A stretch of 64,000 bases of DNA, from the IMG/VR virus record IMGVR_UViG_2568526245_000002. One strand, 5' to 3'. The notes beneath the pieces are model-generated. The model ran no database searches. It was not told the DNA's origin and saw only the letters and a list, made by a program, of their open reading frames with translations. The position numbers were made by a program, and so were the translations under genes. Positions 44,485-60,629 of the stretch are shown here, piece by piece. This DNA comes from a virus. How positions within the stretch are numbered: position 1 is the first letter of the stretch; every line of letters begins with the position of its first letter.

Positions 44485-46377
44485 ATGGGTATCGCACCGG
44501 ATAGCATCCTTGGCGTAGCGGTGGACACCGTTACGGACAAGATGAACGATCTTGAGGCGCTGGGCAGCAAGTACAGCGCAGAACTGTCCGCCGCGCTGGC
44601 GAAGATCGGCGACATCACGGTGGCTGACGTGCCGGCACCGACGCGGCCGGATGCGCCTATCGCTTCGCCGCCGCCCGTCAACCTGGGCGAGCAGCCGACC
44701 TACAACCCGTCTTCGCTGGTCAAGCCGGAAGCCCCTGGCGGCCTGAACATCGACGACCTGCTGGCCGACCTGGACGTGGGCGACATGGACGACCTGCCCG
44801 ACGCGCCGACCATGATCCCGATCAACATCCCGGACGCGCCGAGCATGACGGCCATCCCGGTGCCGGAACGCCCGGACATCGACACCACGGTGGAGATTCC
44901 CGACGCGCCGCAGATCGCCATGCCGGACATGGAAGCGCTGGAACAGATCCGCCTGCCGGAATTCGTGTTCCCCGAGTTGCCCACGTTCGATGCCACGCCG
45001 CCGGACGCGAGCGGGATCACGGTGCCCAACGTCTTCATCAACTGGCTGGAACCGGAGTACCAGTCCGAGGTGCTGGACGAGTTGCAAGCGAAGATCAAGG
45101 AACTGATGGCGGGCGGCACCGGCCTGCCTGTACCCATCGAGCAGGCGCTGTTCGCCCGCTCCCGCGAGCGCGACAGCGGTGAAACCACCCGCGCCGTGCA
45201 GGAGGCGGTTGATACCTGGGCCGCCCGTAACTTCTCCATGCCGCCGGGGATGCTCGCCAGGCAGGTGGACGTGGTGCGCGAGCAGGGCCGGCTGAAAGCG
45301 GCCGAGCTGAACCGCGACATCCTAGTTCAGGCGGCCACCTGGGAAATCGAGAACCTGCGCTTCGCCGTGCAGCAGGGCCTGGCCCTCGAGCAGTTGACCG
45401 AGAACATGCACCAGAACATGGCGCAGCGCCTGTTCGAAGTCGCCCGCTTTCACGCGGAAAGCCAGATCAACGTGTTCAACGCGCAGATCAGCCTATTCAA
45501 CGCGCAGAACGCGGCCTTCGAGACGCTGGCGCAGGTCTACCGTACCAAGCTGGACGCGGCCATTTCCAAGCTGACCGCCTACAAGACCGCCGTGGAGGGC
45601 CAGGTGGCGCTGGGGCAGATCAACCAGCAGCGCGTCGAGGTGTTTAAGGCCAAGCTGGACGCCGTACAGTCGAGCGTCGAGGTCTACAAGGCGCTGATGC
45701 AGGGCGCTTCAGTGCGCGCCGAGACGATCAAGAACCAGTTCGATGCCTACCGCGCAGACGTGCAGGCGTATGCCGAGCAGATTGGCGCCGAGAAGGTCAA
45801 GTTCGACGCCTACGAGGCCCGCGTCAAGGGCGAGTCGGCCAAGGCGGATGTGCTCGATGCGCAGGCCCGTGCCTACGCTTCAACCATCCAGGGGCTGGCG
45901 AACAAGGCCGATGTCAAGGTCAAGGGAGCGCAGATCAGGATGGAAGCGGCGCGCACCAAGGTGTCGAAGTTCTTGGCCGACGTGGACGCCTACAAGGCCA
46001 CCCTGCAGGCCAACCTGAGCGAGGTGCAGTACAACACGTCGGTGTTCCAGGCCCAAGTAGAAGCCTGGCGCGCAGCGGCCAGTGCCAACGTGGCCGACGC
46101 CGAAATGCAATCTCGCTTTGCCGACATGAACAGTCGGACCAACATCGCTTACGCGGAAATGCAGATCAGCGAGTACACCGCGAAGATGCAGAACGCTGTA
46201 CAGCAGGCGCAGATCGCACTGGAGGCAGCCAAGGCCTTGGGGCAGTACACCGCCCAGCTCGCGGCCGGCGCTATGTCGGCGGCACATGTATCGGCCAGCA
46301 TAAGTGGCTCTGGAAGTGCTAGTACAGGTGAAACAAAATCCGAAACAACTTCGACTTCTTATAATTATAATTATTGA
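44485..46377 (+). CDS. 630-aa internal/ejection-type protein (Pro-rich PDAP segment plus long coiled coil)
   Basis: Composition and position before the ejection genes; AT-rich 3' tail. Confidence 0.65.
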   Translation: MGIAPDSILGVAVDTVTDKMNDLEALGSKYSAELSAALAKIGDITVADVPAPTRPDAPIASPPPVNLGEQPTYNPSSLVKPEAPGGLNIDDLLADLDVGDMDDLPDAPTMIPINIPDAPSMTAIPVPERPDIDTTVEIPDAPQIAMPDMEALEQIRLPEFVFPELPTFDATPPDASGITVPNVFINWLEPEYQSEVLDELQAKIKELMAGGTGLPVPIEQALFARSRERDSGETTRAVQEAVDTWAARNFSMPPGMLARQVDVVREQGRLKAAELNRDILVQAATWEIENLRFAVQQGLALEQLTENMHQNMAQRLFEVARFHAESQINVFNAQISLFNAQNAAFETLAQVYRTKLDAAISKLTAYKTAVEGQVALGQINQQRVEVFKAKLDAVQSSVEVYKALMQGASVRAETIKNQFDAYRADVQAYAEQIGAEKVKFDAYEARVKGESAKADVLDAQARAYASTIQGLANKADVKVKGAQIRMEAARTKVSKFLADVDAYKATLQANLSEVQYNTSVFQAQVEAWRAAASANVADAEMQSRFADMNSRTNIAYAEMQISEYTAKMQNAVQQAQIALEAAKALGQYTAQLAAGAMSAAHVSASISGSGSASTGETKSETTSTSYNYNY

Positions 46378-46411
46378 TTATGTGGATCACGGAACATGGA
46401 GGTTTCGTATT

Positions 46412-46762
46412 CTAAGGCTGGTTGTCTTTTTGAAGGTTTCGATATTCTTCCCAAGGTTTTTTTTCTTCGTCATACAGCTTGCTGCATGCAATGAATATCA
46501 TGCGGCCAGCTAAGTTGCTCGGTGTCTCCTTTCCTATTGCCATCATGCAATCTCTGCCTGACTTGTAGCCAAATAATCCTCTCCCAGACCCTTGTTCAAC
46601 CTCTAAGAGTGCATTTGGGTATTGGCCTGCGCAAAGACTTATCACCACCCGGGCAGTCTGATCGTTTTGCACTTCTGGCATTTTATCCAAAATGCATGTT
46701 GCATAGTCTCCTGCTATTGAAGAGGTGGAGATAATTGTCAGTAGGAACAATAGATTTCTCAC
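46412..46762 (-). CDS. AT-rich antisense moron: exported four-cysteine protein ending in KKPWEEY
   Basis: Signal peptide MRNLLFLLTIISTSSIA; four Cys; GGAG SD before GTG; opposite strand to the late operon. Confidence 0.8.
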   Translation of the reverse strand: MRNLLFLLTIISTSSIAGDYATCILDKMPEVQNDQTARVVISLCAGQYPNALLEVEQGSGRGLFGYKSGRDCMMAIGKETPSNLAGRMIFIACSKLYDEEKKPWEEYRNLQKDNQP

Positions 46763-46835
46763 AAGTACTTTTCTCCGGTTGTGCGCCCGGAATATATAGC
46801 TTTTGGTTCATTGGCGGAAAGTGGATACGCCATAG

Positions 46836-46851
46836 CCCCCTGTAGGGTTCG
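46836..46851 (+). promoter_or_regulatory. Late-promoter motif copy 3 (CCCCCTGTAGGGTTCG) upstream of the ejection genes
   Basis: Read directly. Confidence 0.7.
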
Positions 46852-46911
46852 TCCAAAAATGAGACGAGCAGCAAGATTGAATCTGTATCCAAGCCGTTTT
46901 AGAGGCATCCC

Positions 46912-49074
46912 ATGTACGGATTCAAGAAGGGCGCCAAGCCCAAGCAACGATTTGCAGATGGTGGGCGGGTGCGTGGTCCAGGCTCTGGCACCTCAGACGA
47001 CATCGACACCGAGGTGCCTGCGGGCAGCTACATCATGCCGGCCGACTCGACCGAGCAGATTGGGGAAGCGGCGTTGCAGGGTATGGGGGCGCCGGTCCCG
47101 GTCAGCCTGAGTAACGGCGAGTACCAAATGCCTCCCGAGCAGGTTCACGCCGTTGGCGTGCAGGCGCTGGACGCTGTGAAGAATGCCACTCATGTGCCGG
47201 TAGCCCAGCAGGCAAAAGGGTTCTCTCCGCGTAAAAGGGGAGGGAATGGCGCCGAGAAGCCAGAATTGTTCTTCGCCGACGGCGGGGTTGTTGATGAAGA
47301 GCGTAAAAAGCAGACCCGTTTCGACATCACCAACACGCCCGCCGCCCAGCGTGCTGCTGGCGTTGTGCCGGAGGCATCGGCTCCCGTAGCCACCAGCGGC
47401 TACAGTGCAGACCCCACCATGGCAAGGGCGCAGGCCAATATCGATGCTGAACGGCAAGCAATGGCTGTGCATCGGCAGCGCACTGCTGATGCCGCGAATC
47501 TTCAGCCAGGAGTGGCGCCTGGCTACAGCGACAACCTCTATACCGCCAACGCCCAGGCACGTTCGGATGCAGCTCGGCAGCAACAGGCTGTGGCGCAGTC
47601 CGGTGCGCTGCCAGATGCGCCGTCGGCGCAAGGCTTCGCGCCCTCGCGACAAGGTAATGACCCGGCCAGAGCTGCAAGGATGCAGGCTCAGTTTGATCAA
47701 CCGGTAACGGGCCCTGATCGATCTAAAGCTGCTGGTTTCACTCCGCAGTACCGCACCGAGGGACCAGGCTGGCGAACCGATTCGGTTCTTCGCGGGACGG
47801 GTGACGACGTAGCGCAGCAGTGGGCATCTGGTGAGTATGCCCGAGGCTTTGGGACTGGCGTGCGTGGGGCGCTTGCGGCGGTTCCGGCAGCATTCGCTGA
47901 TGCTGGAGAGGATGTCGGTCGATTGGCTGAACCGGTGGTCAACTTCGGTAAAGGGCTATTCGGATGGGATGACACTCCGCCGGCGCTTCGTGGTCAGCAA
48001 GCGGCCCAGGGTGCAGCAGCTCCGAGTTCCAGTGCTGTGCCCGGGCGAGGCCAGGTGTTGCCGGCTGCTGGTTCGCCTACCGGAGCGTTGGAGTCGGCGG
48101 CGAATACTGGAGCCGCTATGCCAGGCGCCGGTGGCTCGGACCTGCCCAACAACGTGACGCGGGTGGGCAACAGCTTCTCCGGCACAACAATCCGCCCGGG
48201 CTACACCGTTAACGGGGAAGCTCAAGCTGCCGGGTTCACCCCAGGTGGTCAGCGGAGTGCTCAAAACCAGCGCGCAGTGGAGAACCTGCTGGCCCGAACG
48301 CCTGATGTGGGTATGGGGTTCAGTCCGAGTACTGTTTCTCAGGTACCGCCGATGACCCCGGACGCGCTGGCTCAGTACAACGCCGGTAACTCCAGCGCGC
48401 CTCGAGTAACCGTGGTTCCCGATAGCTCTCGGGCCGATAGCGTTCGCCAGGCCGCCTTGAATGCAGCCTCAACACCTTATCGCGGTTCGCCGAACGGGCA
48501 GTTAACTGCCCGCCAGATCGACAACCTGTTCGGGCTCCAGCAGAGCGATGACCGCAATGCTACGTCCTTGGCGAGCACTCGGGCGAATAACGACACGGCC
48601 TTGGCGCGAGAGCAGGTGCAGCAGCAGGGCGCCAATCAGCGCGCTGCTCTACAGGAAATGGGGCAGGGCGCGCGCTTCCTCGCCTCCAACGAACTCGATC
48701 GCCAACGCCTGGCTGGTGAGCAAGAGGCCAGGGGTTTCCAAACCCGCGCCGCCCAGCGCATCGAGAAGCTGTACGAGCAGTACGACAAGGCTGCTCCCGA
48801 AGACCGCGCCGCGATCGCCGAACAGATTCGTGTGCTTGCCGGTAAGGACGCTCCGAATCGCTTCACCGTGGTACCTGGCGGCCAGGAGTACGACCCGCAG
48901 TCCATGCAACTTCTGACGCGCCCTGCACGAGTACTCAACAACCAGACCGGACAATTTATCGACCAGCAAACGCAGTCGGCGCAACCCGTCGCTCCGCGAA
49001 CTGGTGAGGTGCGAAGTGGATACCGGTTCAAGGGAGGGAACCCTGCCGACCAGAATAATTGGGAGAAGGTGTAA
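46912..49074 (+). CDS. Internal virion / DNA ejection protein
   Basis: FADGG.V.GPGSGTSD.I motif (FADGG twice); low-complexity body; C-terminal GYRFKGGNPADQNNWEKV typical of podophage ejection proteins. Confidence 0.7.
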   Translation: MYGFKKGAKPKQRFADGGRVRGPGSGTSDDIDTEVPAGSYIMPADSTEQIGEAALQGMGAPVPVSLSNGEYQMPPEQVHAVGVQALDAVKNATHVPVAQQAKGFSPRKRGGNGAEKPELFFADGGVVDEERKKQTRFDITNTPAAQRAAGVVPEASAPVATSGYSADPTMARAQANIDAERQAMAVHRQRTADAANLQPGVAPGYSDNLYTANAQARSDAARQQQAVAQSGALPDAPSAQGFAPSRQGNDPARAARMQAQFDQPVTGPDRSKAAGFTPQYRTEGPGWRTDSVLRGTGDDVAQQWASGEYARGFGTGVRGALAAVPAAFADAGEDVGRLAEPVVNFGKGLFGWDDTPPALRGQQAAQGAAAPSSSAVPGRGQVLPAAGSPTGALESAANTGAAMPGAGGSDLPNNVTRVGNSFSGTTIRPGYTVNGEAQAAGFTPGGQRSAQNQRAVENLLARTPDVGMGFSPSTVSQVPPMTPDALAQYNAGNSSAPRVTVVPDSSRADSVRQAALNAASTPYRGSPNGQLTARQIDNLFGLQQSDDRNATSLASTRANNDTALAREQVQQQGANQRAALQEMGQGARFLASNELDRQRLAGEQEARGFQTRAAQRIEKLYEQYDKAAPEDRAAIAEQIRVLAGKDAPNRFTVVPGGQEYDPQSMQLLTRPARVLNNQTGQFIDQQTQSAQPVAPRTGEVRSGYRFKGGNPADQNNWEKV

Positions 49075-52000
49075 TGGCCGATACCAGCAAGCCATGGGAA
49101 GAGTTCGCGTCTCAACAGCCAGTAACTGGTGGCGAGAAGCCGTGGGAGGAGTTCGGTGGCGAGACGAAGGAGGAGGGAAGAGGCCTGATCGGGCATGCGC
49201 GCGACCTTGGCCTATCCGTGGCCAAGGGGGTGATTGGGGTTCCGGAAGCGGCTGTTGGCCTCGCTGATATCCCAACAGAGGGCCGCGTAGGTAAGTTCCT
49301 CGAGAACCAGGACGGCATGCTCGGCTTCCGGCCCCGGGAGGCGAAGGATTTCCTGAGTGATCTGCACACCGATCAGTACAAACAGCAACAGCAGGACTTT
49401 CAGGATGCTGATGGCGTCGTAGACAAGACGCTGCATGCTGTACAGAACCCGTCGATGGTCGTGAACACCGTAGCGGAGTCTTTGCCTTCCATGTTGGCGG
49501 GGGGCGCGGTCGGTCGTGGCGTTCGGGCGCTGGCTCCAGCGTTGGCACCTGTGGCAGCCGGCGCGGCTGGCGAAGGGGCGGTTATGGCTGGTCAGCAAGC
49601 AGAGCAGATCCGCCAAGAAACTGATGACGGCTTGCTCACTCCGGCGCAGTCGGGAGCTGCGGTGGCCACTGGTGTGTTGGGAAGTCTGTTTTCCCTTGCC
49701 GGCGGTAGCTTGGCCAAGAAACTGGGTATCGGTGATGCGGATACCCTCCTCGCTGGTGGTGCCAACCCAGGACAACTGGTCAGCGAGCTGGCGTCCATGC
49801 CGGCGAAGAGCATTCCGCGGAAGGTGATAGAGGGCGCAATCTCCGAGGGCTTCCTTGAGGAACTGCCACAGTCCGCATCTGAGCAGGTTCTGCAAAACCT
49901 GGCGCTGGGACGGGACTGGGCCAGCGGCCTGGATGAAGCGATGGTAATGGGAACGCTGGCCGGGATGGCCATGGGTGGGCCGGCGGCGGTTCTGCATGGC
50001 GGTCAGCCGGCAGCGTCCCGTGGCCTGGCGGATGCGGACGCTACCTTCGAGAGTACCCCGGGCCTTGAGGGGCAGACCGAGACGACTGCGCCACTGGCAC
50101 TCCCAGCTCCAGTGTATGAGGCTGGTTCTGACGGCCAGGTCCGGACCACGGTCGACCAGAACTCCGCTACCCAGGCACAGCGTCAGCAAGAGGCTGAACG
50201 TCTGGACCGAATCCGTCGAGGTGAAGTCACCGATGTGACTCCGGTCCCGGCGGCCCCAAAGCGCTCCGAGCAGATGGGTCTGGACCCGGCTGTTGGGCCA
50301 CTGTCTGGTGCTGCTGCGCAGGCCGTGGACAGTGGCGCAACTGACCAGATGGTGCAACAAGCCGCGCTCCAGCAGGCAGCCGAGGAGGCGCAGAAGAGCG
50401 GCAGGAAAGGTGATCAGGTCAACCCGGAAACCGGTGAGATTACAGCGGAGCAGGGTGATCTGCTGGCATCCGATCCTGTCACCGATCTGCAGGGCCGCCT
50501 GGAATTTGTACGCCGGCAAGCCCGTGCCACCGGATGGGACGCGAAGAAAATCGCCGAGCGCGATCGCTTGCAGGAGGAACTGGACAAGCTCGCGCCAGCG
50601 CCGGATGCCGGCTACATGCAGCGCGTCGGTGAGCGCGTGAAGCGTATCGAGGCCGCGCAGAGCCCCGATGAAATTGCCGCGATCCTCGCCGAGGATCAGC
50701 AGGATGAGCAGCGCCACCAGAACGCCGCTGGCCGGGTGGAGCTAGCCGCCCGCGCTCGCGGCTTCGCCCTGGACCAGGCGGCGCAGCAGCAAGCCCCGAC
50801 GCCAATCGGCGTGCAGGACGACATCCAGCAGGCCCAAGGCAAGGCTGACGCGCAGCAGGCGCAAGCCGCACAACCGGCTGTATCGCTGGCGCCGGCAGCG
50901 GAATCCGTACCGGCAGCACCTGCGACCGAGGCGAAAGCGACCAACCTGAAGGACGCCATTTCGAAGGTACGCCAGGCCAAACAGAAGCCCGAGCAGCCTG
51001 CGGCGCTGCAGGCCGTGCGTCGCGGAGAGGTGGGCGGAAAGCTGGGCAGTGGCGAAGTAGTGACCACCAGCAGCGGGCGGCAGACGACGCCTTTCCCGAA
51101 GGTCAGCGTGGACACCAACCGCAAGGCGACCGGCACCATCAAGGCCGTGGACCAGTGGCTGATGCAGAATGCACTGGATGAAGCGCGCTCGCGCGGCGAC
51201 GAGTCCAACGCGCGCCAGTTCGAGGCGAATCTGGAGAAGCCGCAGCGGGCCGATAAGGACGCTGCCGAGGAATACCTGTTCGGCCAACAGCCTGCTGTGC
51301 AGCCCCGTGTGCTGAAGCCACTGGTGCCGAAGTCTACCGCCACCGACAACAGCGCAAGCTGGGTCATCCGAAACAAGGAAACCGGTGAGGTGATCGCGGA
51401 AACGTTCGACCGTAAGAAGGTTGACGCGCTCAACACCGAGAAATACGAAGCGGTTCCGATCCAGCAGCACCTGGCGAGCCTGAACAAGCCCAAGGTGCCC
51501 AGCATCGAAGGCAAGGACATCGGCGAAGGCTGGGCGGAGTTCAGCAAGGAATCGGGCACCGTGGGTATCCCTCGCGCCGACATGCCGCAGATCAAGGCCG
51601 AGCACCGCGGCGCGATGGTGAACTTCCTGAGCGCTCGTGGCGTGCAGCATCAGGAAGAGACAGTTCCCGCAGATACCCTCAAACCGACGCAGGCTGAATT
51701 CAGCCGCGACAAGGTGGCGAAGGCCAAGGACTTCGAGGGTGGCAACCGCTCCATCTTGGTTTCGCGCGAAGGCAACGTGTTGGATGGGCATCACCAGTGG
51801 ATGGCCGCCCGCGATAACGGCGAAGAGGTGAGGGTGATCCGCCTGGATGCCCCCATCCGCGACCTGGTGAAACTGGCCCACGAGTTTCCCAGTTCCACCA
51901 CCGATGCCAGCAGCGGGCAGGGTGCCACGGTTGACGCGAGACAGGTGAGGCCCGAGCCTGAGCCAGCCGCTCCTGATGTGCCGAAGAAGAGGCCGCGCGG

Positions 52001-55000
52001 CGTGCTGGCAAAGAGGTTCCAGGCTGAGGCCCAGGCCCGCGCCGAATACTTCACCCCCGGCAACGTGGTGCGAGGTTACGGCGCCAACTACGACAGGGTT
52101 ATCAGCTACAACCCGACCGAATCGGGAAGCTGGACCGTCACGGTGCGCAGTGTACGCAAGGAAGGCGACACCTGGGTGGATGTCCCGGGCGAGAGCGAGC
52201 GCACTCACATGACGGCGCCGGATGCGCGCGACATGAAGCGCGGCCCGGCCGGCCGTATCGCAACACAGGGGGCGCCAACCGCCGATGAGTTCCCCTTGAA
52301 GGAAGCCGCCGCCAGCTACTCCGGTATCTCGAACAGCAGCAGCCAGCGAGCGAAGTCCGATGCGGATGAGTTCCAGACCTACATCGACGTGGCCCGCGAC
52401 GCGGGCGCTGTCGTGGCACGCACCGATGCTCAGCAGGCGGCCGTGGAGCAAGCCACACGAGAATTGCGGGCCGATTACCTGGCCCAGTACCGGCGCCTGA
52501 TGAACGTGCGCGCCGGCACCTACAGCGGTTATGTTGTCGGGCGTTCTGGACTGAACAGCAAGCAGGCGGACAGGCGCAACAGCGCCTACGACCGCGCCAT
52601 CGACACATTCGTGGCCTGGCAGAAGACCAATCAGGATCGCGTGCGCCAGGCGGCCCTGGACGCCCGTACCGACGAGGAAAAGGCGGCAGATCGCCAGGCC
52701 GCCGAGCAGGCCCGCGCCGACAAGGCGCAGCGCAAGGAAGACGGGGACCGCAGCCTGATGCGCAGGATTCTGTCCTGGAAGAAGGGCAGCGAGCCGGTGG
52801 CGATCACCAAGGCCGCGCACCTTGCCGGGGTGAACTTCGGCAAGGATGGCTACCCGACCAGCATTAAGTTGACGCCGACCGATGGCAGCGTGCTGACCAG
52901 CGACAAGTTCGACCTGGCGGCGCTGTTCCGTGAGCGCGGCATGAGCGTACCGGAGTCGAAACGCCGCGTGCGTGAACTGGTCGATTTCGTGCGCGCCGAG
53001 GATGCAGCCCGGCCCCAGTCCGAACCGGCAGAGGCACCCAAGCCTGAGCCCGCACAGCCCAGCGATTCGAAAACCCCGACGCTCGATGCGCATGTAGCCC
53101 TCATGCAGCGCGTGCGCAGTGGGGAGGCGACCGCCGACGAGTTCCGCCAGGCATTCGACCGTACGCAGAACGCCCGCGATGCCCTGGTGGCCGAGTTGGG
53201 CACTATGAAGAAGGATGACCTGCTGAAGTCAGGCGGCTACAGCTTCTTCCACCGCTACCGCAACGAGAAGAAGGCAGCGATCGTCGATGCCCTGGCCGGT
53301 CGCGTGCTGGAGGAGTTTGCGCTGGGCCGCAGCTACGGCCCAAGCAGCTACGTGATGTCGGCTGCTGGCCTCGAAGCGCACCGCCAGGCCAAGGCCAGCG
53401 CGCTGGCCGAACTGGTGGCGAACATCACCGACGACGACATCAAGGCGCACGCCGCCGAGGTCGCCGAGGCGCAGCAGGAAGTCCAGGCCCGCCGGGCAGC
53501 GCAGCAGAAGGCCGTCGCCAACCCGCAGACCCTCGCCGAGTTCCGCCAGGCAGTGAGCTACAACATGGAGACGCACGGGGAATCCGTGCGGGAGGCGTTC
53601 ATGCGCCTGACGCCGGAACAGCGTATTCGCTACGACGAACTGGAGGCTGAGAGCACCAAGGCCCTGCGTGAGCAGGCCAAGGCAAAGGCCAAGACCCGCG
53701 TAGCCAGCGCCGGGCAGACTACGGCCGGCGACATCATCGAGACGAAGCACACCAAGCACGGGCACGACCTTTTCGTGGTGCAACTGGCCGAGCGCGTCAG
53801 CCGCGAGGACTACGACACCCTGAACAATTCGGCGAAGCGGCTGGGCGGCAGCTACAGCAGTTACCGTGGGAATGGTGCCGTCCCCGGCTTCCAGTTCCGC
53901 ACCCGCGAGGCGGCCGAAGCATTCCGCAAACTGGTGACCGGCGACACCGCCGACGCGCAGGCTGTTGCAGAAGCGCGCCGCGACGCCTTCGAGGATGACC
54001 GCAACCAGAGCGCCGCCCAGCGGCTGCGCACCATGGCCCAGGCTCTCAACGAGCGGGCCGATGACTCCCTGAGCCGCGTACGCAAGCAGAACACCGATCG
54101 CCGTGCGCGGATGGCCGCCAGTGCCGAAGCCTCGGCGCGCGCCGACAAGGCACTGGCCGCCACCATGAACAACCTGGCTGCCGCCATCGAAGGCGGCAAG
54201 GCGAAGTTCCTAGACACCGTGCGGCAAAAAGTGCAAGTGGAGTTCCTGGCGCGGGAACTGCGCAATGCGAAGGACGCGCAAATTCGAGCGAAGTACCCGA
54301 CTTATGGCGAGCAGGAGAAACACCGTGGCGAGCCGGTGGACGCCGAGACGGTGGACTACTCCACATTCCCCAGTTACACCGCCATGCGCTCCGACCTGGC
54401 GAGCCTGGCGCGCCAGATGGCGGAAGTGGACGGCCTGAAGAAACTGGCCGCGCGCCTGGAGAAGGTCGCCGACGATGTGACCGAGGCCTACACCGACTGG
54501 GCCAAGCAGAACCTTCTGTCCGTCAGCCGCTTCACCCGCGGTGACCAGTTCGCCGACTTTAAGAGTCGCGAGGATGCCGAGCGTGCCATTCGCCGCTCCG
54601 GCCTCACCGGCAAGGCCATCGTGCTTCCGGTGAAACGCGGGCAGAACCGCATCGTCATGGCCCCCAGCGAAGCCATGAAGCTGGGCCTCTGGCAGGGCGA
54701 CGGCGACAAGCGCATCACGCTGTCCGGCGAGTTCGGCGGCGAACTGGTGCAGGCCCTGGGCCGGCGCAGTGGCAGCAAGATCACCGTTCCGTGGGCGCTG
54801 GAGAGCGCGCACGAAAAGCGCAAGCGCCTGGAGAGCATGGGCATCCTCACCGGCAGCGAGTACCGCTCCGCACTGCGCGAGTTCGCAGCGCTGCGCGAGG
54901 CGCCCGCCGAGCCGGATAAGATCAAGCAGATGGAACGGGCGATGATCGGTCGTCGCAATGACGGCCTGGACTTCTTCCCGACCAGCGATGCCGTGGTGGA

Positions 55001-58000
55001 GTCCATGCTGGACGCCGCTGAGATTGGGGAGGGCATGTCTGTCCTGGAGCCATCCGCCGGGATGGGCCATATCGCCGATGCGATCCGTGACCAGGCGGGC
55101 GTGGACCCTGACGTGATTGAGCTGTCCGGCGAGCGCCGCGAGCTTCTGGAAGCCAAGGGCTACCGCGTGGTGGGTAGTGACTTCATGGATGTGCAACCGC
55201 GCAGCTCCTACACTTTCGGCGACGTGTTTCGCGCGCCCGATGGTTCCCTTGGCGTGATGCGTGGACAGGGCGGCTTGGGTAGCAACCGGGTGCGCTTCCA
55301 GCCTCTGGATGAGAGCGGCATGCCAGATGATCGCCGCAGCCAATACATGGACCGCGACGACCTGGTGGGCGTCGAGCATCGTGGTGCGGACAGCGGCTAT
55401 GACCGGATCGTCATGAATCCTCCGTTCTCCAAGGGGCGTGACATCCAGCACGTACAGCACGCCTACAGCCTGCTGAAGCCCGGCGGCCGCCTGGTTGCCG
55501 TCATGAGCGAAGGCGCCTTCTTCCAGAGCAACAAGGCCGCCGAGAACTTCCGCGCCTGGCTGGACGGCCTGGGCGCCACCAGTGAACGGCTGCCGGAGGG
55601 TTCGTTTATGGACCCGGCGCTACCCGTCAATACCGGCGTGAACGCGCGCATGGTGGTGATCGATAAGCCGGCAGCCGAAGAGTCTCCAGCGCCGCAGCCC
55701 GGCGAACAACCGCCCGTGCAGTACTCGTTCGCCGGCCGCAATGCCGTCGGCGCCAACCTGCATGCCCTGAGCACCGCACAGCAGCGCATCGCCATTGGCG
55801 AAAACGCCGAGGCCGTTCGCCGAGATACCGGTTGGCACCGTAGCGCTGATGGCAAGTGGCGCTTCGAAATCAGCGATCATCAGGCCAGCATTGCCGTGGC
55901 CGGTGAGACTGCTGGCGCCATCATCAATATGGCCCACCTCAATGCCATCAACGACGAGCGCAGTCGACCGACCGTCGGCGATGTGCTCAACCATCCTCAA
56001 CTGTTCGCTGCATATCCCGACCTGCAGCGTATCCCGGTGGCAGTGATGCCAGAGGGCGTCACTGCGCTGGCTCGCCTACGCCGGTTCGCCACTGGTAACC
56101 AAGTTGAGGTTCAGGCGGACATGCCGCGCACCGAGGTTGCCTCGGCGATCCTGCACGAACTCCAGCATGCGATACAGATCCGGGAAGGTTTCGCCATGGG
56201 CGGCTCGGCCAGGGCTTTCGTCAGCAACTTCGACAAGACTGGTGCGGCGACCTATCGTCGTTTGGCTGGAGAGGTGGAGGCGCGCAACACGCAGGCTCGG
56301 CTGAAAATGACGCCGCGCCTGCGCCGGGACATTGCACCCGATGAGTCGGCGGACATCCCTGCAAGTCAGGTGCTGGTGTCGTTCAATGGCCGCGACATCG
56401 AGAATGGCCCGTTGCCGCAGAACCTGACGGGGCGTCCGCCGATGACCTCGCAAAGCCTGGTGCGTGCTTTCGACCTACAGTTCCCAGCCCTGGGCCAGGC
56501 TGTGCGCAAGATGCTGAAGCGCGGCAAGGAAGGACAACGGGGTGGCTTGGTGATGATCGACAGCGCCGACCCGTTGCGCATCGCGCACACCTACGCGCGG
56601 AAATCCGGTACCGCACTGAGCGATGCCGTTCAACTGTTTGAGGATGGCGGGCGCATCAATGGCTTCTACGATGCCAGATCAGGTCTAACTTTTCTGGTCG
56701 GCCCGAACCTGAATCCGGTAACCGCACCGGCCGTGGTGCTTCACGAAATGGTTCACGGCCAGCAGCGGCAGAATCTCGACCAGGCTGCCCACGCCATGCT
56801 GATGAATCGCGGCAACGTGCGGAGCGCCGAACTGCGCACCTTCCTGGACCGTGTGGCCAGCCGCATGATCGAGGCCGGCGAGAGCCGCAACATGAAGGAG
56901 GCCGCTCCGTATATCGTGGAGCAGGCTGTTATTGAAGGGCGAGAGCAGGGGTTCGCCGAGGCTGATAGCCGGTTCCTTTCCTGGGTAGACAGTGCGCTGG
57001 GCAAGCAGGTGGGTGACTTCCTGCGTAGGTTCCTGGCCAACATCCGTCAGTGGATGCTGCGCCACGGTCTGCCGGTTGACCGTATCAGCGTGGACGATCT
57101 GGTGCGATATGCGATGGCTGGTGTGGAAAGCGCCGCCGAAGGCCGGGTACGGGGCGACGGCCTAGCCATGAGTCAGGACGACATGCGCAAGGCGCGCGTG
57201 CTGCAAGGCCCGCCGGTGGCCATCCTGGAGGGGAATGAAGCACCACAGGGCTTCGCTGCGGTTCGCGAGTGGGCGGCGAAGCTATTCGAGTCTCAAGGTG
57301 GCAAGGCAGTGAACCCGGACCTGGGCGACGTGTTGCTGGATATGCGCGCTGTGCGCGACTCGATGGCGCATGGCAAGGCCAACCCATACAAGTTCTCGGC
57401 GTTCGCGGCCGTCAAGGACGTGCTGGAGCGTGGTGTGGTGGTTCACCGCGCGGACTATGAGAAGGGGGAGAGTTTCTACGTATCGGCGCCGGTGGTGATC
57501 GACGATAAGGATGACATCGTGACTGTGTTGGTGCGCCGCGATCCGAACATGCAGCGCATGTATCTGCATTCGGTGGCCACAAAAGAATATCTCCTGAACC
57601 GTCGAGTATCCGGTGCTGATGCCACGATGGCAGCGCAGCCTTCCGGCTCGTCCAGTTCAGGAGACGTAGCCAGTGTACTCCAGCGGCTGCTGACCGCAAG
57701 CCTGAATGAACCCGAAGGTCCGCAGTTCAGTCGCTCCGGTCTGCGCGAACTCACCAGCAAGGCTACCGCCGAACTGAACAAGACCTTCAGCGCTCCGGGA
57801 GGCCTGTCCTGGTGGCACAAGACCATCGGCACCATGTACAACCTCGCAGAGCGTTCCCCGGCATTCAAACCGGTCTTCGAGTCGGCGCAAGGATTTATCG
57901 ATGACGTGAGTTATTACGCCAGCGATGCGGCTGATCTGGCGCCGAAACTGCTGCCGAAGCTGGAAACCTGGCGCGACATCGCAAAGTCCCCGGTGGGCGC

Positions 58001-60629
58001 TGAGGACAACAAGGCGGTGGCCAAGCCGGTATTCGAGGGCACGCTGATGTGGGCGCGCGACGTGGACGGCAAGCCGGTGCGCGTCGATTCGCTGGCTGAG
58101 CGCGCCATGCGTCTGACGGCCGACGAGAAGGCGGACATCCTGCTGAAGCAGGGCAAGATTCCCGAAGGACTGCTGCGCGCCTGGCGCGGCCTGAGCCCCG
58201 AGCAGTTCGCCAAGATGATCGACAGCCGCTACGAGTCGCAGATGCTCAAGGCAGGCATCGTCTGGACCGACGCTGAGCTGCGCGACATATGGAAGCTCAA
58301 CGATGCTCAGGTCGCGCTGTACCGCGAGTTCCGCGCCGCCACCGACCGTAGCCTGGACACCATGGCCCGCGCCGACATGCTGCGCTTCGGCGGCGAGGAT
58401 GTGAAGGAACTGCGCGACCAGGTGATGGACGCGGCCGATGCGCAGGAGGGCGCCGCGATACTGCGCGACCACCTGGCGCAGATGGCTGATGCATGGCCGG
58501 AACGCGCCACGAACCTGCTGAACCTGGCACACGGCATGACAGATCGCGCCGAGAAGGTCGCCCAGTTGCAGGGCGAGGGCTATGCACCGCTGTCGCGCTT
58601 CGGCAAGTACACAGTGGACGTGGTGGGTCCGGACGGTCAGCGTGAATACTTCAGCCTGTTCGAGACGAAGCGCGAGGCCAACCAAATGGCCGAGCAGATG
58701 CGTGGCGCGTTTCCTGGCGCCACCGTGAGCCAGGGCACTCTGTCCGAGGAAGCGTACAAGCTATTCGCCGGCATCACACCGGAAACGCTGGAACTATTCG
58801 GTAACGCCCTCGGCTTCGACTCACAGGGCGATAGCGCGCGTGACCAGGCCTTCCAAGACTACCTACGCCTGACAAAGACCAACCGCAGCGCAATGCGCCG
58901 GCTTATTCACCGAAAGGGCATCGCTGGTTATAGCGAGGACGTAGGGCGGGTACTGGCCTCGTTCGTATACTCCAATGCGCGGCAAACCGCCGCCGGCCTG
59001 CACATGGGCGATCTATCCGAGGCTGTGAACGGCATCCCGCAGGCGCAGGGCGAACTGAAGGACGCCGCGGTACGGCTGGCCGACTACATCAAGAACCCGC
59101 AAGAGGAGGGGCAGGCGGTGCGCGGACTGCTGTTTGCACAGTACCTCGGCGGCTCCGTCGCGTCTGCCTTCGTCAACATGACCCAACCGGTCCAAGTGAC
59201 TTTTCCCTGGCTGAGTCAGTATTGCGGGGTGAAGCGCGCTGCGACGGAACTGGGGCGTGCAGCACGTCAGATGGCGCATCGGTCCTATCAGTTCGAGCCG
59301 GACCTGGCCCGGGCATTAAAGCGCGCCGAGGATGATGGGGTGGTGTCCCCGCAGGAGGTCCACCAGTTGATGGCGCAGGCCCGCGGCAGCGGCTCGCTGC
59401 GCGCGGGGGACGGGACGCGCTTGGGTGATGCTCGAGCACTTGCGTCCAACAGCGTGGCGCGCCTGTCGATGGCCTGGGGCAAGTTGTTCGGCGCCGCAGA
59501 GCAGATCAACCGCCGCATGACCTACATCGCGTCGTATCGCATCGCCAAAGCGCAGAACATGGCCAATCCTGATGAGTTCGCGCGCCGGGCCGTGCGCGAG
59601 ACGCAGTTCGTATACTCCAAGGCCAGCAAGATGCGCTGGGGGCGTGGTGCCGTCGGCGGCACCTTGATGACCTTCAAGACGTACAGCGTGGCCTATCTTG
59701 AGCTGATGCATCGCTTGTGGAATCAGGGTGAGCCTGGTTCGCAGGAGCGCAAGGACGGTCGGAAGGCTGCTGCCCTGATGATCGGCATGCTGCTGCTCGT
59801 CGGCGGCGCCGGTGGCTTGCCGTTCGCCGAAGACGCCGAAGACCTGATCGACGGTGCGGCGCAACTCATGGGCTATAACTTTTCTACCGCGAAGGCCAAA
59901 CAGGAGTTTCTGGAAAGTCTGTTCGGTCGGGTGCTTGCCGACTTCATTGATCGCGGGGTGTCCGGGCTGCCTGGGGCTCCGCTCGATGTATCGGGCCGGC
60001 TGGGTATGGGGAACCTGATACCCGGAACCGGTCTGCTAACTGAAAAGACCAGCCATACGCGAGACGTCCTGGAAATAGCTGGCCCGATGGGAGACTTTGC
60101 CAGCCGAATAGCGAGTGGTACTCGCAAGGTGCTGGGAGGTGATATCGGCAGCGGTATCCTGGAGATGTCGCCGGGCGCGGTGCGAAATGCGGCCAAAGGC
60201 GTGGATATGCTGGCCACTGGCATGTACAGGGACGCCAAGGGCTACAAGGTGCTCGACACCAACGTGCTCGAGGCCGCTATGAAGTCCATCGGCTTCCAGC
60301 CGGCCAGCGTAGCCACTATCCAAGGGGCCAACATGCTCAACCAGAAAGCAAAGGCCTTCTACAACTTGAAAGCCCAGGAAATTCGCAGCATGTGGGCGGC
60401 CGGCATCTTCGAGAAAGACCAGGGCAAGGTTGAGCGCGCGCGGCAAGCAATAGCCGATTGGAATCGACGAAACCCTGACCAGCCAATGGCCATCCGAGTG
60501 CCAGACATCATGCGACGAGTCCGTGAAATGTCGCTATCGAAGGACGAACGGATAGCGAAGACCGCACCGAAAGCGATGCGGCAGCAGATGCGAGAGGATC
60601 TGGAGCGCACCCGCGCAACGCTGGACTGA
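49074..60629 (+). CDS. 3851-aa polyvalent virion protein (ParB-like, N6-MTase, two HExxH metallopeptidase-like, LPD3-like and PLxRFG domains)
   Basis: LKPTQ...LDGHHQW (~51.7 kb); FFPT...LEPSAG.G...NPPF (~55.0-55.5 kb); GW.RSADGKWRFEISD...LHELQH (~55.8-56.2 kb); LHEMVH (~56.75 kb); YAPLSRFG (~58.6 kb); start ATG 49074 by TAATG overlap. Confidence 0.9.
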   Translation: MADTSKPWEEFASQQPVTGGEKPWEEFGGETKEEGRGLIGHARDLGLSVAKGVIGVPEAAVGLADIPTEGRVGKFLENQDGMLGFRPREAKDFLSDLHTDQYKQQQQDFQDADGVVDKTLHAVQNPSMVVNTVAESLPSMLAGGAVGRGVRALAPALAPVAAGAAGEGAVMAGQQAEQIRQETDDGLLTPAQSGAAVATGVLGSLFSLAGGSLAKKLGIGDADTLLAGGANPGQLVSELASMPAKSIPRKVIEGAISEGFLEELPQSASEQVLQNLALGRDWASGLDEAMVMGTLAGMAMGGPAAVLHGGQPAASRGLADADATFESTPGLEGQTETTAPLALPAPVYEAGSDGQVRTTVDQNSATQAQRQQEAERLDRIRRGEVTDVTPVPAAPKRSEQMGLDPAVGPLSGAAAQAVDSGATDQMVQQAALQQAAEEAQKSGRKGDQVNPETGEITAEQGDLLASDPVTDLQGRLEFVRRQARATGWDAKKIAERDRLQEELDKLAPAPDAGYMQRVGERVKRIEAAQSPDEIAAILAEDQQDEQRHQNAAGRVELAARARGFALDQAAQQQAPTPIGVQDDIQQAQGKADAQQAQAAQPAVSLAPAAESVPAAPATEAKATNLKDAISKVRQAKQKPEQPAALQAVRRGEVGGKLGSGEVVTTSSGRQTTPFPKVSVDTNRKATGTIKAVDQWLMQNALDEARSRGDESNARQFEANLEKPQRADKDAAEEYLFGQQPAVQPRVLKPLVPKSTATDNSASWVIRNKETGEVIAETFDRKKVDALNTEKYEAVPIQQHLASLNKPKVPSIEGKDIGEGWAEFSKESGTVGIPRADMPQIKAEHRGAMVNFLSARGVQHQEETVPADTLKPTQAEFSRDKVAKAKDFEGGNRSILVSREGNVLDGHHQWMAARDNGEEVRVIRLDAPIRDLVKLAHEFPSSTTDASSGQGATVDARQVRPEPEPAAPDVPKKRPRGVLAKRFQAEAQARAEYFTPGNVVRGYGANYDRVISYNPTESGSWTVTVRSVRKEGDTWVDVPGESERTHMTAPDARDMKRGPAGRIATQGAPTADEFPLKEAAASYSGISNSSSQRAKSDADEFQTYIDVARDAGAVVARTDAQQAAVEQATRELRADYLAQYRRLMNVRAGTYSGYVVGRSGLNSKQADRRNSAYDRAIDTFVAWQKTNQDRVRQAALDARTDEEKAADRQAAEQARADKAQRKEDGDRSLMRRILSWKKGSEPVAITKAAHLAGVNFGKDGYPTSIKLTPTDGSVLTSDKFDLAALFRERGMSVPESKRRVRELVDFVRAEDAARPQSEPAEAPKPEPAQPSDSKTPTLDAHVALMQRVRSGEATADEFRQAFDRTQNARDALVAELGTMKKDDLLKSGGYSFFHRYRNEKKAAIVDALAGRVLEEFALGRSYGPSSYVMSAAGLEAHRQAKASALAELVANITDDDIKAHAAEVAEAQQEVQARRAAQQKAVANPQTLAEFRQAVSYNMETHGESVREAFMRLTPEQRIRYDELEAESTKALREQAKAKAKTRVASAGQTTAGDIIETKHTKHGHDLFVVQLAERVSREDYDTLNNSAKRLGGSYSSYRGNGAVPGFQFRTREAAEAFRKLVTGDTADAQAVAEARRDAFEDDRNQSAAQRLRTMAQALNERADDSLSRVRKQNTDRRARMAASAEASARADKALAATMNNLAAAIEGGKAKFLDTVRQKVQVEFLARELRNAKDAQIRAKYPTYGEQEKHRGEPVDAETVDYSTFPSYTAMRSDLASLARQMAEVDGLKKLAARLEKVADDVTEAYTDWAKQNLLSVSRFTRGDQFADFKSREDAERAIRRSGLTGKAIVLPVKRGQNRIVMAPSEAMKLGLWQGDGDKRITLSGEFGGELVQALGRRSGSKITVPWALESAHEKRKRLESMGILTGSEYRSALREFAALREAPAEPDKIKQMERAMIGRRNDGLDFFPTSDAVVESMLDAAEIGEGMSVLEPSAGMGHIADAIRDQAGVDPDVIELSGERRELLEAKGYRVVGSDFMDVQPRSSYTFGDVFRAPDGSLGVMRGQGGLGSNRVRFQPLDESGMPDDRRSQYMDRDDLVGVEHRGADSGYDRIVMNPPFSKGRDIQHVQHAYSLLKPGGRLVAVMSEGAFFQSNKAAENFRAWLDGLGATSERLPEGSFMDPALPVNTGVNARMVVIDKPAAEESPAPQPGEQPPVQYSFAGRNAVGANLHALSTAQQRIAIGENAEAVRRDTGWHRSADGKWRFEISDHQASIAVAGETAGAIINMAHLNAINDERSRPTVGDVLNHPQLFAAYPDLQRIPVAVMPEGVTALARLRRFATGNQVEVQADMPRTEVASAILHELQHAIQIREGFAMGGSARAFVSNFDKTGAATYRRLAGEVEARNTQARLKMTPRLRRDIAPDESADIPASQVLVSFNGRDIENGPLPQNLTGRPPMTSQSLVRAFDLQFPALGQAVRKMLKRGKEGQRGGLVMIDSADPLRIAHTYARKSGTALSDAVQLFEDGGRINGFYDARSGLTFLVGPNLNPVTAPAVVLHEMVHGQQRQNLDQAAHAMLMNRGNVRSAELRTFLDRVASRMIEAGESRNMKEAAPYIVEQAVIEGREQGFAEADSRFLSWVDSALGKQVGDFLRRFLANIRQWMLRHGLPVDRISVDDLVRYAMAGVESAAEGRVRGDGLAMSQDDMRKARVLQGPPVAILEGNEAPQGFAAVREWAAKLFESQGGKAVNPDLGDVLLDMRAVRDSMAHGKANPYKFSAFAAVKDVLERGVVVHRADYEKGESFYVSAPVVIDDKDDIVTVLVRRDPNMQRMYLHSVATKEYLLNRRVSGADATMAAQPSGSSSSGDVASVLQRLLTASLNEPEGPQFSRSGLRELTSKATAELNKTFSAPGGLSWWHKTIGTMYNLAERSPAFKPVFESAQGFIDDVSYYASDAADLAPKLLPKLETWRDIAKSPVGAEDNKAVAKPVFEGTLMWARDVDGKPVRVDSLAERAMRLTADEKADILLKQGKIPEGLLRAWRGLSPEQFAKMIDSRYESQMLKAGIVWTDAELRDIWKLNDAQVALYREFRAATDRSLDTMARADMLRFGGEDVKELRDQVMDAADAQEGAAILRDHLAQMADAWPERATNLLNLAHGMTDRAEKVAQLQGEGYAPLSRFGKYTVDVVGPDGQREYFSLFETKREANQMAEQMRGAFPGATVSQGTLSEEAYKLFAGITPETLELFGNALGFDSQGDSARDQAFQDYLRLTKTNRSAMRRLIHRKGIAGYSEDVGRVLASFVYSNARQTAAGLHMGDLSEAVNGIPQAQGELKDAAVRLADYIKNPQEEGQAVRGLLFAQYLGGSVASAFVNMTQPVQVTFPWLSQYCGVKRAATELGRAARQMAHRSYQFEPDLARALKRAEDDGVVSPQEVHQLMAQARGSGSLRAGDGTRLGDARALASNSVARLSMAWGKLFGAAEQINRRMTYIASYRIAKAQNMANPDEFARRAVRETQFVYSKASKMRWGRGAVGGTLMTFKTYSVAYLELMHRLWNQGEPGSQERKDGRKAAALMIGMLLLVGGAGGLPFAEDAEDLIDGAAQLMGYNFSTAKAKQEFLESLFGRVLADFIDRGVSGLPGAPLDVSGRLGMGNLIPGTGLLTEKTSHTRDVLEIAGPMGDFASRIASGTRKVLGGDIGSGILEMSPGAVRNAAKGVDMLATGMYRDAKGYKVLDTNVLEAAMKSIGFQPASVATIQGANMLNQKAKAFYNLKAQEIRSMWAAGIFEKDQGKVERARQAIADWNRRNPDQPMAIRVPDIMRRVREMSLSKDERIAKTAPKAMRQQMREDLERTRATLD

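Follow-up and report, generated by a model that had tools for sequence, protein, structure and literature searches.

A 64,000-nucleotide stretch of viral DNA (IMG/VR record IMGVR_UViG_2568526245_000002; the whole stretch analysed is called the window below) contains an antisense gene for a protein of 116 amino acids (aa) with four cysteine residues and a predicted signal peptide. The tail of this protein carries the motif KPWEEY, and two copies of KPWEEF stand at the N-terminus of a 3851-aa ejection protein (the giant) encoded nearby on the opposite strand. We found that tail and giant change their motifs together across 39 dereplicated phage and prophage loci. We propose, at a probability of about 0.6, that the 116-aa protein, encoded by a prophage, works as a periplasmic decoy and would exclude superinfecting phages of its own kind. 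Identity to four Pseudomonas aeruginosa phages, LKA5, phiC725A, F1Pa, and E220, was 97%, and we assigned the window to the F116-like P. aeruginosa phages (Hollowayvirus, F116 group).

Results

The tail of the four-cysteine protein matches the giant of its own phage

The initial annotation of the window had asked whether the shared motif might mean exclusion by mimicry. It placed KPWEEY and both KPWEEF copies correctly, and the giant open reading frame (ORF) starts with MADTSKPWEEF...GGEKPWEEF, with the motif repeated as described. It also stated that the small protein ends in KPWEEY. The motif is indeed in the tail, but nine residues (RNLQKDNQP) still follow it, and the C-terminal end reads ...CSKLYDEEKKPWEEYRNLQKDNQP. 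The residues behind the motif varied among Hollowayvirus copies.

In a six-frame translation of the window, PWEE[FY] occurred only at these three sites. The best 7-mer match of the 116-aa protein to any long ORF of the window was KKPWEEY against EKPWEEF. This score was reached by 0/2000 shuffled 116-aa proteins against the giant and by 9/300 against all long ORFs. The codons differed among the three KPWEE[FY] copies, indicating that the copies were not made by DNA duplication. We regard the match within the window as suggestive by itself; the question was settled by the comparison across phages.

Loci with relatives of the four-cysteine protein were found with a 12-sequence family alignment. 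The set comprised 61 loci from IMG/VR and 19 from genomes; its sources were Pseudomonas, Comamonas, Delftia, Acidovorax, Lautropia, and Burkholderiaceae. A giant ORF of at least 1500 aa was present on the opposite strand, 0.8–4.6 kb away, in 43 of the 55 loci with enough flank, and the shared motif usually stood twice in its N-terminus. For the 39 dereplicated loci, with tails cut at 60 aa and long forms scored separately, a tail scored on average 28.6 in its best 7-mer match to the giant N-terminus of its own locus, whereas permuted pairings gave 16.1 ± 1.0. None of 20,000 permutations reached the observed score. The initial annotation had proposed to test whether tail and ejection motif track each other across phages, and they clearly did.

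At least 14 motif classes were matched between tail and giant: KPWEE[FY], GPW..Y, DLFDEFG, GLFDDLRP, N[FY]FDQFD, [FT]SYEDA[FY]G, LKPF.G.LD, DQFGG.LV, ID.FL, NPF.DP.[LY]G, DWESG, DW.Q[FY]ELV, WWK..A.P, and SEI..ALK.AP. Representative pairs are listed in Table 1. Some loci encode long forms of the family, which have an extra domain. Their cores were 85–97% identical, and their last 20–30 residues fell into five motif classes. These tails matched their own giant at every locus but one (L085). Near-identical cores with five different, matching tail classes indicated that the match was not a result of co-inheritance.

Table 1. Motif pairs of four-cysteine protein and giant at the same locus
Form	Tail of four-cysteine protein	Giant N-terminus
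	DLFDEFGIEP	MADLFDEFGID...GDLFDEFGIDP
	NFFDQFD	SNYFDQFD...ANYFDQFD
	TFSYEDAFGLP	TFSYDEAFG...FSYEDAFGLSP
	GLFDDLRP	GLFDDLR...GLFDDLRP
	PPGFIPFTGKLD	PPGFVKFTGEL...PPGFVPFTGKLD
	EVDWESG	DVDWESG
	GPWNKYR	GPWDQYR...GPWRNY
	NPFNDPNLG	NPFSDPHLG...NPFLDPDLG
Long	DWWKRDAVP	EWWKQGASPV / DWWKAGAKPV
Long	NPFADPNYG	NPFTDPDYG / NPFADPDYG
Long	SEIEEALKGAPPY	SEINDILKGAPAY
Long	MTYEEAYGLP	ISYEDAFGLKP
Long	DGPWRKY	APWKKY / GPWSRY

The sharing could in principle be accidental, or inherited together without function, and the match inside the window was only moderately unlikely when all long ORFs were considered. Against this stand the permutation result across loci, the near-identical cores with different and matching tails, the occurrence of one motif class on different giant backbones, and the differing codons. 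We consider both of these readings very improbable and take the motif sharing to be real.

Some tails carried more than one motif; those of L058 and L084 concatenated two or three classes. At L040 and L075, one giant N-terminus contained four motifs of two classes (LQPFSGKLD, GPWTNY, GPWSQY, and LKPFDGELD). The four-cysteine tail beside it carried GPW..Y in L075 and EIDRFL in L040.

A covariation of tail and giant would likewise be seen if the protein were a trap. The four-cysteine core would then bind the motif and capture the tip of the incoming giant, with its own tail as a ligand in cis, either a lid or an oligomerization handle. The AlphaFold 2 model agrees with this in that the tail is a confident helix (residues 103–113, predicted local distance difference test [pLDDT] ~88) despite heterogeneous tails in the alignment. 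However, a class-specific groove is hardly possible in cores that are 85–97% identical and go with five unrelated motif classes, and multi-motif tails suit display better than a lid. A trap is rather unlikely in our estimate.

The C-terminus of the neighboring 720-aa protein changes with the giant motif

A 720-aa ejection-type protein is encoded directly before the giant, and its stop codon overlaps the giant start codon as TAATG. Pfam scanning gave no match for it. Its N-terminal signature (GPGSGTSDDI...LSNGEYQMP) was found in at least 191 IMG/VR stretches. Most of the protein is A/Q/G-rich sequence of low complexity, and GF[STA]P motifs occur at five spaced sites. Between the window and phage PA8, the 720-aa proteins differed in the last ~35 aa and were nearly identical over the remainder. 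The PA8-type giant tip carries two copies of another motif (WGENDKIV and FGANDEVV). The swap in PA8-type phages of Hollowayvirus covered precisely ~35 aa at the end of the 720-aa protein and 31 aa at the start of the giant.

We collected proteins with the N-terminal signature GPG[ST]GTSD.I and LS.GEY and compared their C-terminal tails (C-tails) with the motif class of the giant (Table 2). For 26 dereplicated loci, 23 concordant pairs were observed versus 2.6 expected (0/20,000 permutations), a figure that is only indicative, since we set up the classes by eye with the data already in view. The association also held where other genes separate the two genes. It spanned at least two giant backbone types, read by eye from the N-terminal sequences behind the motifs ('NTSLLGDLGTDLK' and 'GHARDLGLS...VPEAAVGLADIP'). 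Each backbone type carried several motif classes, each with its matching C-tail class. From this we infer that the 720-aa-like C-tail and the giant motif form a docking pair. The initial annotation had guessed that the C-terminus of the neighboring ejection protein might be part of the same docking system; the covariation of tail and motif classes lends support to this, and the two may bind each other.

Table 2. C-tail classes of 720-aa-like proteins and motif classes of the giants
C-tail	Giant motif	Loci
GY.F.GG.P....W..V	PW..[YFW]	window, 8P, L020, L087, L098, L105
AVG..S.V...TAVWDG..WV	DW[DE].G	L017, L102, L111
GQVYQT	FSYEDA	L025, L100
AEVEQTA..RGIS..EVIRRL	[DN]L[FL]DEF	L018, L060, L081, L113
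ALP.G..Y...DG	[FW]G....[IV][VP]	L038, PA8
NP..A.FD..[FY]G	NFFDQFD (L042, L059) or NPF.DP.YG (L099, L104)	L042, L059, L099, L104

The tail of one family representative (P0087, EALPIDPEGTQYIKD...VPFDGDF) was like the 720-aa-type C-tail class of PA8 and L038 (ALP.G..Y...DG) and not like a giant tip. Some decoys may copy this other side of the pair.

Both motifs might instead address a host factor in the periplasm or envelope. The small protein would then serve lysogenic conversion, or lysis timing on superinfection, and not a block of entry. The phage-encoded partner of the motifs is only a candidate, family members also occurred in contigs without a nearby giant, and colicins and pyocins recruit Tol and Ton proteins with acidic-aromatic peptides of this type. 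In contrast, phages of a single host species have both of two motif alleles, the one part that is swapped along with them is encoded by the phage, and the 720-aa-like tail covaries with the motif class. In addition, concatenated tails aimed at other phage types make sense for defence. We regard a host target as unlikely.

The 116-aa protein is a member of a conserved family with variable tails

Precomputed matches to PF28034 (VF_A0006 four-cysteine protein) were present on cluster representatives 95–98% identical to the window protein, and the nearest Atlas clusters also carry PF28034. A Pfam scan of the 116-aa protein with a Pfam copy that lacks the PF28034 model gave 0 matches. By the precomputed matches and the Atlas clusters, the 116-aa protein is a probable member of the PF28034 family. 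An exhaustive profile-free search gave a family of 285 representatives. The four cysteine residues (C23, C44, C72, and C93) were invariant in 145–151 of 152 relatives. The family core is conserved and ends with C-x-x-L-Y-[DN]; beyond it is a variable tail of short motifs. The window protein has the same core, with signal peptide, four invariant cysteines, and this end. We found no recorded function for the family.

Tails of the PW..[YF] type were recurrent (18/145 family representatives), indicating that KPWEEY is no peculiarity of this phage. We thus rejected the view of PWEEY as a phage-specific extra in the family. The relevant feature is that each tail matches its own phage.

Two further arrangements were seen in the family. 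In L080, L087, and representatives P0055, P0097, P0123, and P0130, the copied motif stood between two extra cysteines (e.g., C..NPGPWC.Y[KR], CSALAQEFGLDC), which suggests display in a disulfide-closed loop. Representative P0011 is a 1611-aa protein that matched the four-cysteine domain in 14 separate stretches, indicating a tandem array of this domain.

The gene is antisense and AT-rich, as the initial annotation described it, with a signal-peptide-like start and four cysteines. It starts with GTG and has GGAG 10 nt upstream. The N-terminus consists of MR, 13 hydrophobic residues, and then small residues at −3 and −1; relatives have the same A-x-A pattern before [GA]-N. Export by the Sec pathway is predicted on this basis, and disulfide formation is predicted from the sequence and the model. 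The AlphaFold 2 model was all-helical (pLDDT 90.6), with low pLDDT over residues 1–20. Foldseek comparison of the model with the PDB gave no match with E ≤ 0.001. Matches among AlphaFold database clusters were to uncharacterized proteins only, and the top five were 30–43% identical and apparently relatives.

The gene lies in an AT-rich cassette between virion genes

Alignment with H66 and F116, which have an empty slot, and with PA8, which has another cargo, set the borders of the cassette at the stop codon of a 630-aa virion gene and at a conserved stretch ~80 nt before the start of the 720-aa gene. The GC content was 0.37–0.48 in the cassette versus 0.62–0.70 in the flanks. The four-cysteine gene occupied the slot in the window and nine further phage records, which represent LKA5, phiC725A, F1Pa, E220, Atpa001, JBD90, and F_ET605sp; it was intact in 10 Hollowayvirus records. 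All examined giant N-termini of phage records with the four-cysteine gene were of the KPWEEF type. The patchy presence among close relatives and the deviating composition are those of a moron gene. Features of the region are listed in Table 3.

Table 3. Features of the window
Feature	Position	Strand	Basis or remark
630-aa virion gene	44485-46377		left neighbor of cassette
AT-rich cargo cassette, ~458 bp	46378..46835	.	slot between 630-aa and 720-aa virion genes
Gene for 116-aa four-cysteine secreted protein, proposed decoy (VF_A0006 / PF28034 family)	46412..46762	-	ORF
KPWEEY tail motif, residues 102-107	46442..46459	-	sequence; the same in every Hollowayvirus copy
A8 run (codons of EEKK)	46457..46464	-	overlaps KK codons
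Predicted Sec signal peptide, residues 1-18, cleaved between S-I-A and G19	46709..46762	-	read from sequence
720-aa ejection-type protein	46912..49074	+	N-terminal signature GPGSGTSDDI / LSNGEY
Variable C-terminal tail of 720-aa protein, candidate docking partner, ending GYRFKGGNPADQNNWEKV	48967..49071	+	comparison with PA8; class covariation
3851-aa polyvalent internal virion (ejection) protein	49074..60629	+	ORF, domains, homology
KPWEEF copy 1	49089..49106	+	sequence
KPWEEF copy 2	49137..49154	+	sequence

The last codons of the 630-aa gene (46360-46377) were synonymously AT-shifted (AAT TAT AAT TAT versus AAC TAC AAC TAC in H66), indicating that the recombination border of the cassette is inside the 3' end of this gene.

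The slot held a different cargo in PA8, Epa33, and CF/BR phages, a plus-strand 63-aa ORF of membrane type (L002:2196-2387 in PA8 and L004:3243-3434 in Epa33). It has a signal-like N-terminus with likely cleavage after VFA and a C-terminal membrane anchor. Its exposed segment DKYGVDESI was weakly like the PA8-type giant motif [FW]G.ND..[IV], with a score within the chance range. We note only as a lead that another type of decoy may occupy this slot.

The initial annotation also proposed phase variation at an A8 run before the motif. Window, LKA5, and Atpa001 all had A8 there, as did four IMG/VR prophages. The run was broken by a synonymous G in E220, and A7 was seen only in one UNVERIFIED record. 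No indel was present in contigs of four sequencing runs. Phase variation was therefore rejected as unsupported.

The position of the gene inside the late region bears on when the proposed jamming would pay. The protein might be expressed late, and not in lysogeny, and stop progeny from ejecting into cells that are lysed or have been infected before; T5 Llp protects progeny in a comparable way, acting on its receptor. Contigs from RNA runs do not set the gene apart from the late genes, as this would have it. However, the antisense orientation to the late operon was kept in 43/55 loci, and the AT-rich character of the cassette suggests independent control. A benefit in the lytic cycle is improbable on balance.

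The giant is related to internal virion proteins

The giant contains LPD23 and LPD3 domains and a weak methyltransferase match, as expected of a polyvalent protein. The record of its H66 homologue annotates a virion protein verified by mass spectrometry, and the C-terminal part of that homologue was related to T7 internal virion protein D by Hardies et al. (PMC4819975). Virion presence and this relationship are taken from the H66 record and that paper, and because of them the label "ejection protein" is reasonable for the giant by homology. The tandem motif was kept in diverged phages, with two copies of QKPWESF in 8P and USP_25 (64–68% identical). In the F116 record (AY625898, L011:4930-5200), a stop codon closes the frame with MADTSKPWEEF...KPWEEF soon behind its second motif, and the annotated giant continues in another frame. 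The break reflects a sequencing error of one base or else a genuine frameshift.

Discussion

We propose that the 116-aa protein acts as a periplasmic decoy. The gene, in its AT-rich cassette antisense to the late operon, would be transcribed on its own, also in lysogens. The product would be exported by Sec, and its four invariant cysteines would pair into two disulfides within a small helical domain, the stable carrier of the peptide. The carrier would display KPWEEY, which is by sequence a copy of the tandem KPWEEF of the giant tip. As the internal proteins of a related phage are ejected into the periplasm, where the giant tip would be exposed, the decoy would fill the site needed by the tip. 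This site is most likely the covarying C-tail of the 720-aa protein, to which the tip would bind. The trans-envelope conduit would be left incomplete, and the DNA would be kept out. Export would keep the mimic out of the cytoplasm, where the resident phage assembles its own virions. A swap of the motif pair could let incoming phages escape, and decoys could follow by swapping or concatenating their tails, a cycle that would explain the many motif classes.

Several points weigh against this proposal. The tails of about half of the family representatives contain no nameable motif, so not all family members need be decoys. Those of L040, L085, and L024 mismatch their own giant, although mismatched tails and motif arrays are easier to reconcile with a weapon against other phages than with a component of self-assembly in the phage that encodes them. 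The classes of the third partner were defined by eye and post hoc. The contigs of RNA runs (four runs, three studies) cover the whole late region, the four-cysteine gene and the flanking late genes alike. A consensus scan, which is crude for Pseudomonas promoters, found no sigma-70-like promoter or terminator for the gene.

A wider proposition follows the same lines. F116-type podophages may build their DNA-entry conduit by means of a short-peptide docking code, made of the 720-aa-like C-tail and the tandem N-terminal motif of the giant, and this code may diversify under prophage periplasmic decoys that copy one side of it. Exclusion specificity would then reside in 6–10 residues, could be broadened by joining several motifs, and could be reprogrammed by a tail swap. 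We hold this tentatively, at slightly less than even odds.

If the decoy reading is true, exclusion at the DNA-entry step gains a molecular logic readable from sequence, in which a decoy peptide opposes a docking peptide. Contacts within the poorly understood set of podophage ejection proteins would come to light as well, and there would be an explanation for the mosaic hot spots at these termini. Sequence alone could then predict which prophages protect which strain against which phages, which is useful for choosing therapeutic Pseudomonas phages. The system is a good test bed, with cultured phages (LKA5, phiC725A, H66, and PA8) and natural controls (empty slot, alternative cargo, and alternative motif pair).

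In open-access PMC and bioRxiv full text, covering the family, mimicry-based exclusion, and F116-type exclusion, we found no paper on PF28034, on this mimicry, or on a link between the family's variable tails and phage ejection proteins. Among the closest known systems is SieA of P22, which is prophage-encoded and blocks DNA delivery by relatives, with escape mapping to the ejection proteins gp16 and gp20 (Leavitt et al. 2024, PMC10883804). It resembles what we propose for the 116-aa protein in being a prophage-encoded exclusion that acts on the ejection conduit. SieA is a protein of the inner membrane without reported mimicry, whereas the 116-aa protein is a predicted soluble, exported four-cysteine domain with a copied peptide. 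The latter has only one hydrophobic segment, at the N-terminus, and the remainder is a soluble helical domain, which is not the make-up of an SieA-type inner-membrane protein. Unlike SieA, its specificity would be readable from 6–10 residues that are swapped in modular fashion. General searches found no family matches of the 116-aa protein beyond PF28034 relatives, and no direct sequence comparison with SieA was made.

Spackle (Sp) of T4 is a small, helical, signal-peptide-bearing periplasmic exclusion protein that acts on an injected component of the incoming phage. Its target is the gp5 lysozyme, which it inhibits through contact with a folded domain and not through mimicry of a docking peptide. 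The 116-aa model showed no likeness to the Spackle fold (Foldseek against the PDB, no chain with E ≤ 0.001). HxsA of the HXS system is a periplasmic effector that arrests phage DNA entry; it is host-encoded, matured by radical S-adenosylmethionine enzymes, broad-spectrum, and thought to bind DNA electrostatically (PMC13128918). The 116-aa protein differs in having no maturation genes and a predicted specificity based on the motif. None of SieA, Spackle, and HxsA works by copying a docking peptide.

The TolB and TonB boxes of colicins and pyocins are short peptides that stand in the disordered N-terminal leader of the imported protein, serve docking in the periplasm, and bind conserved host proteins. 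These boxes are not known to be countered by secreted peptide mimics. The giant motif differs from them in that its covarying partner is encoded by the phage.

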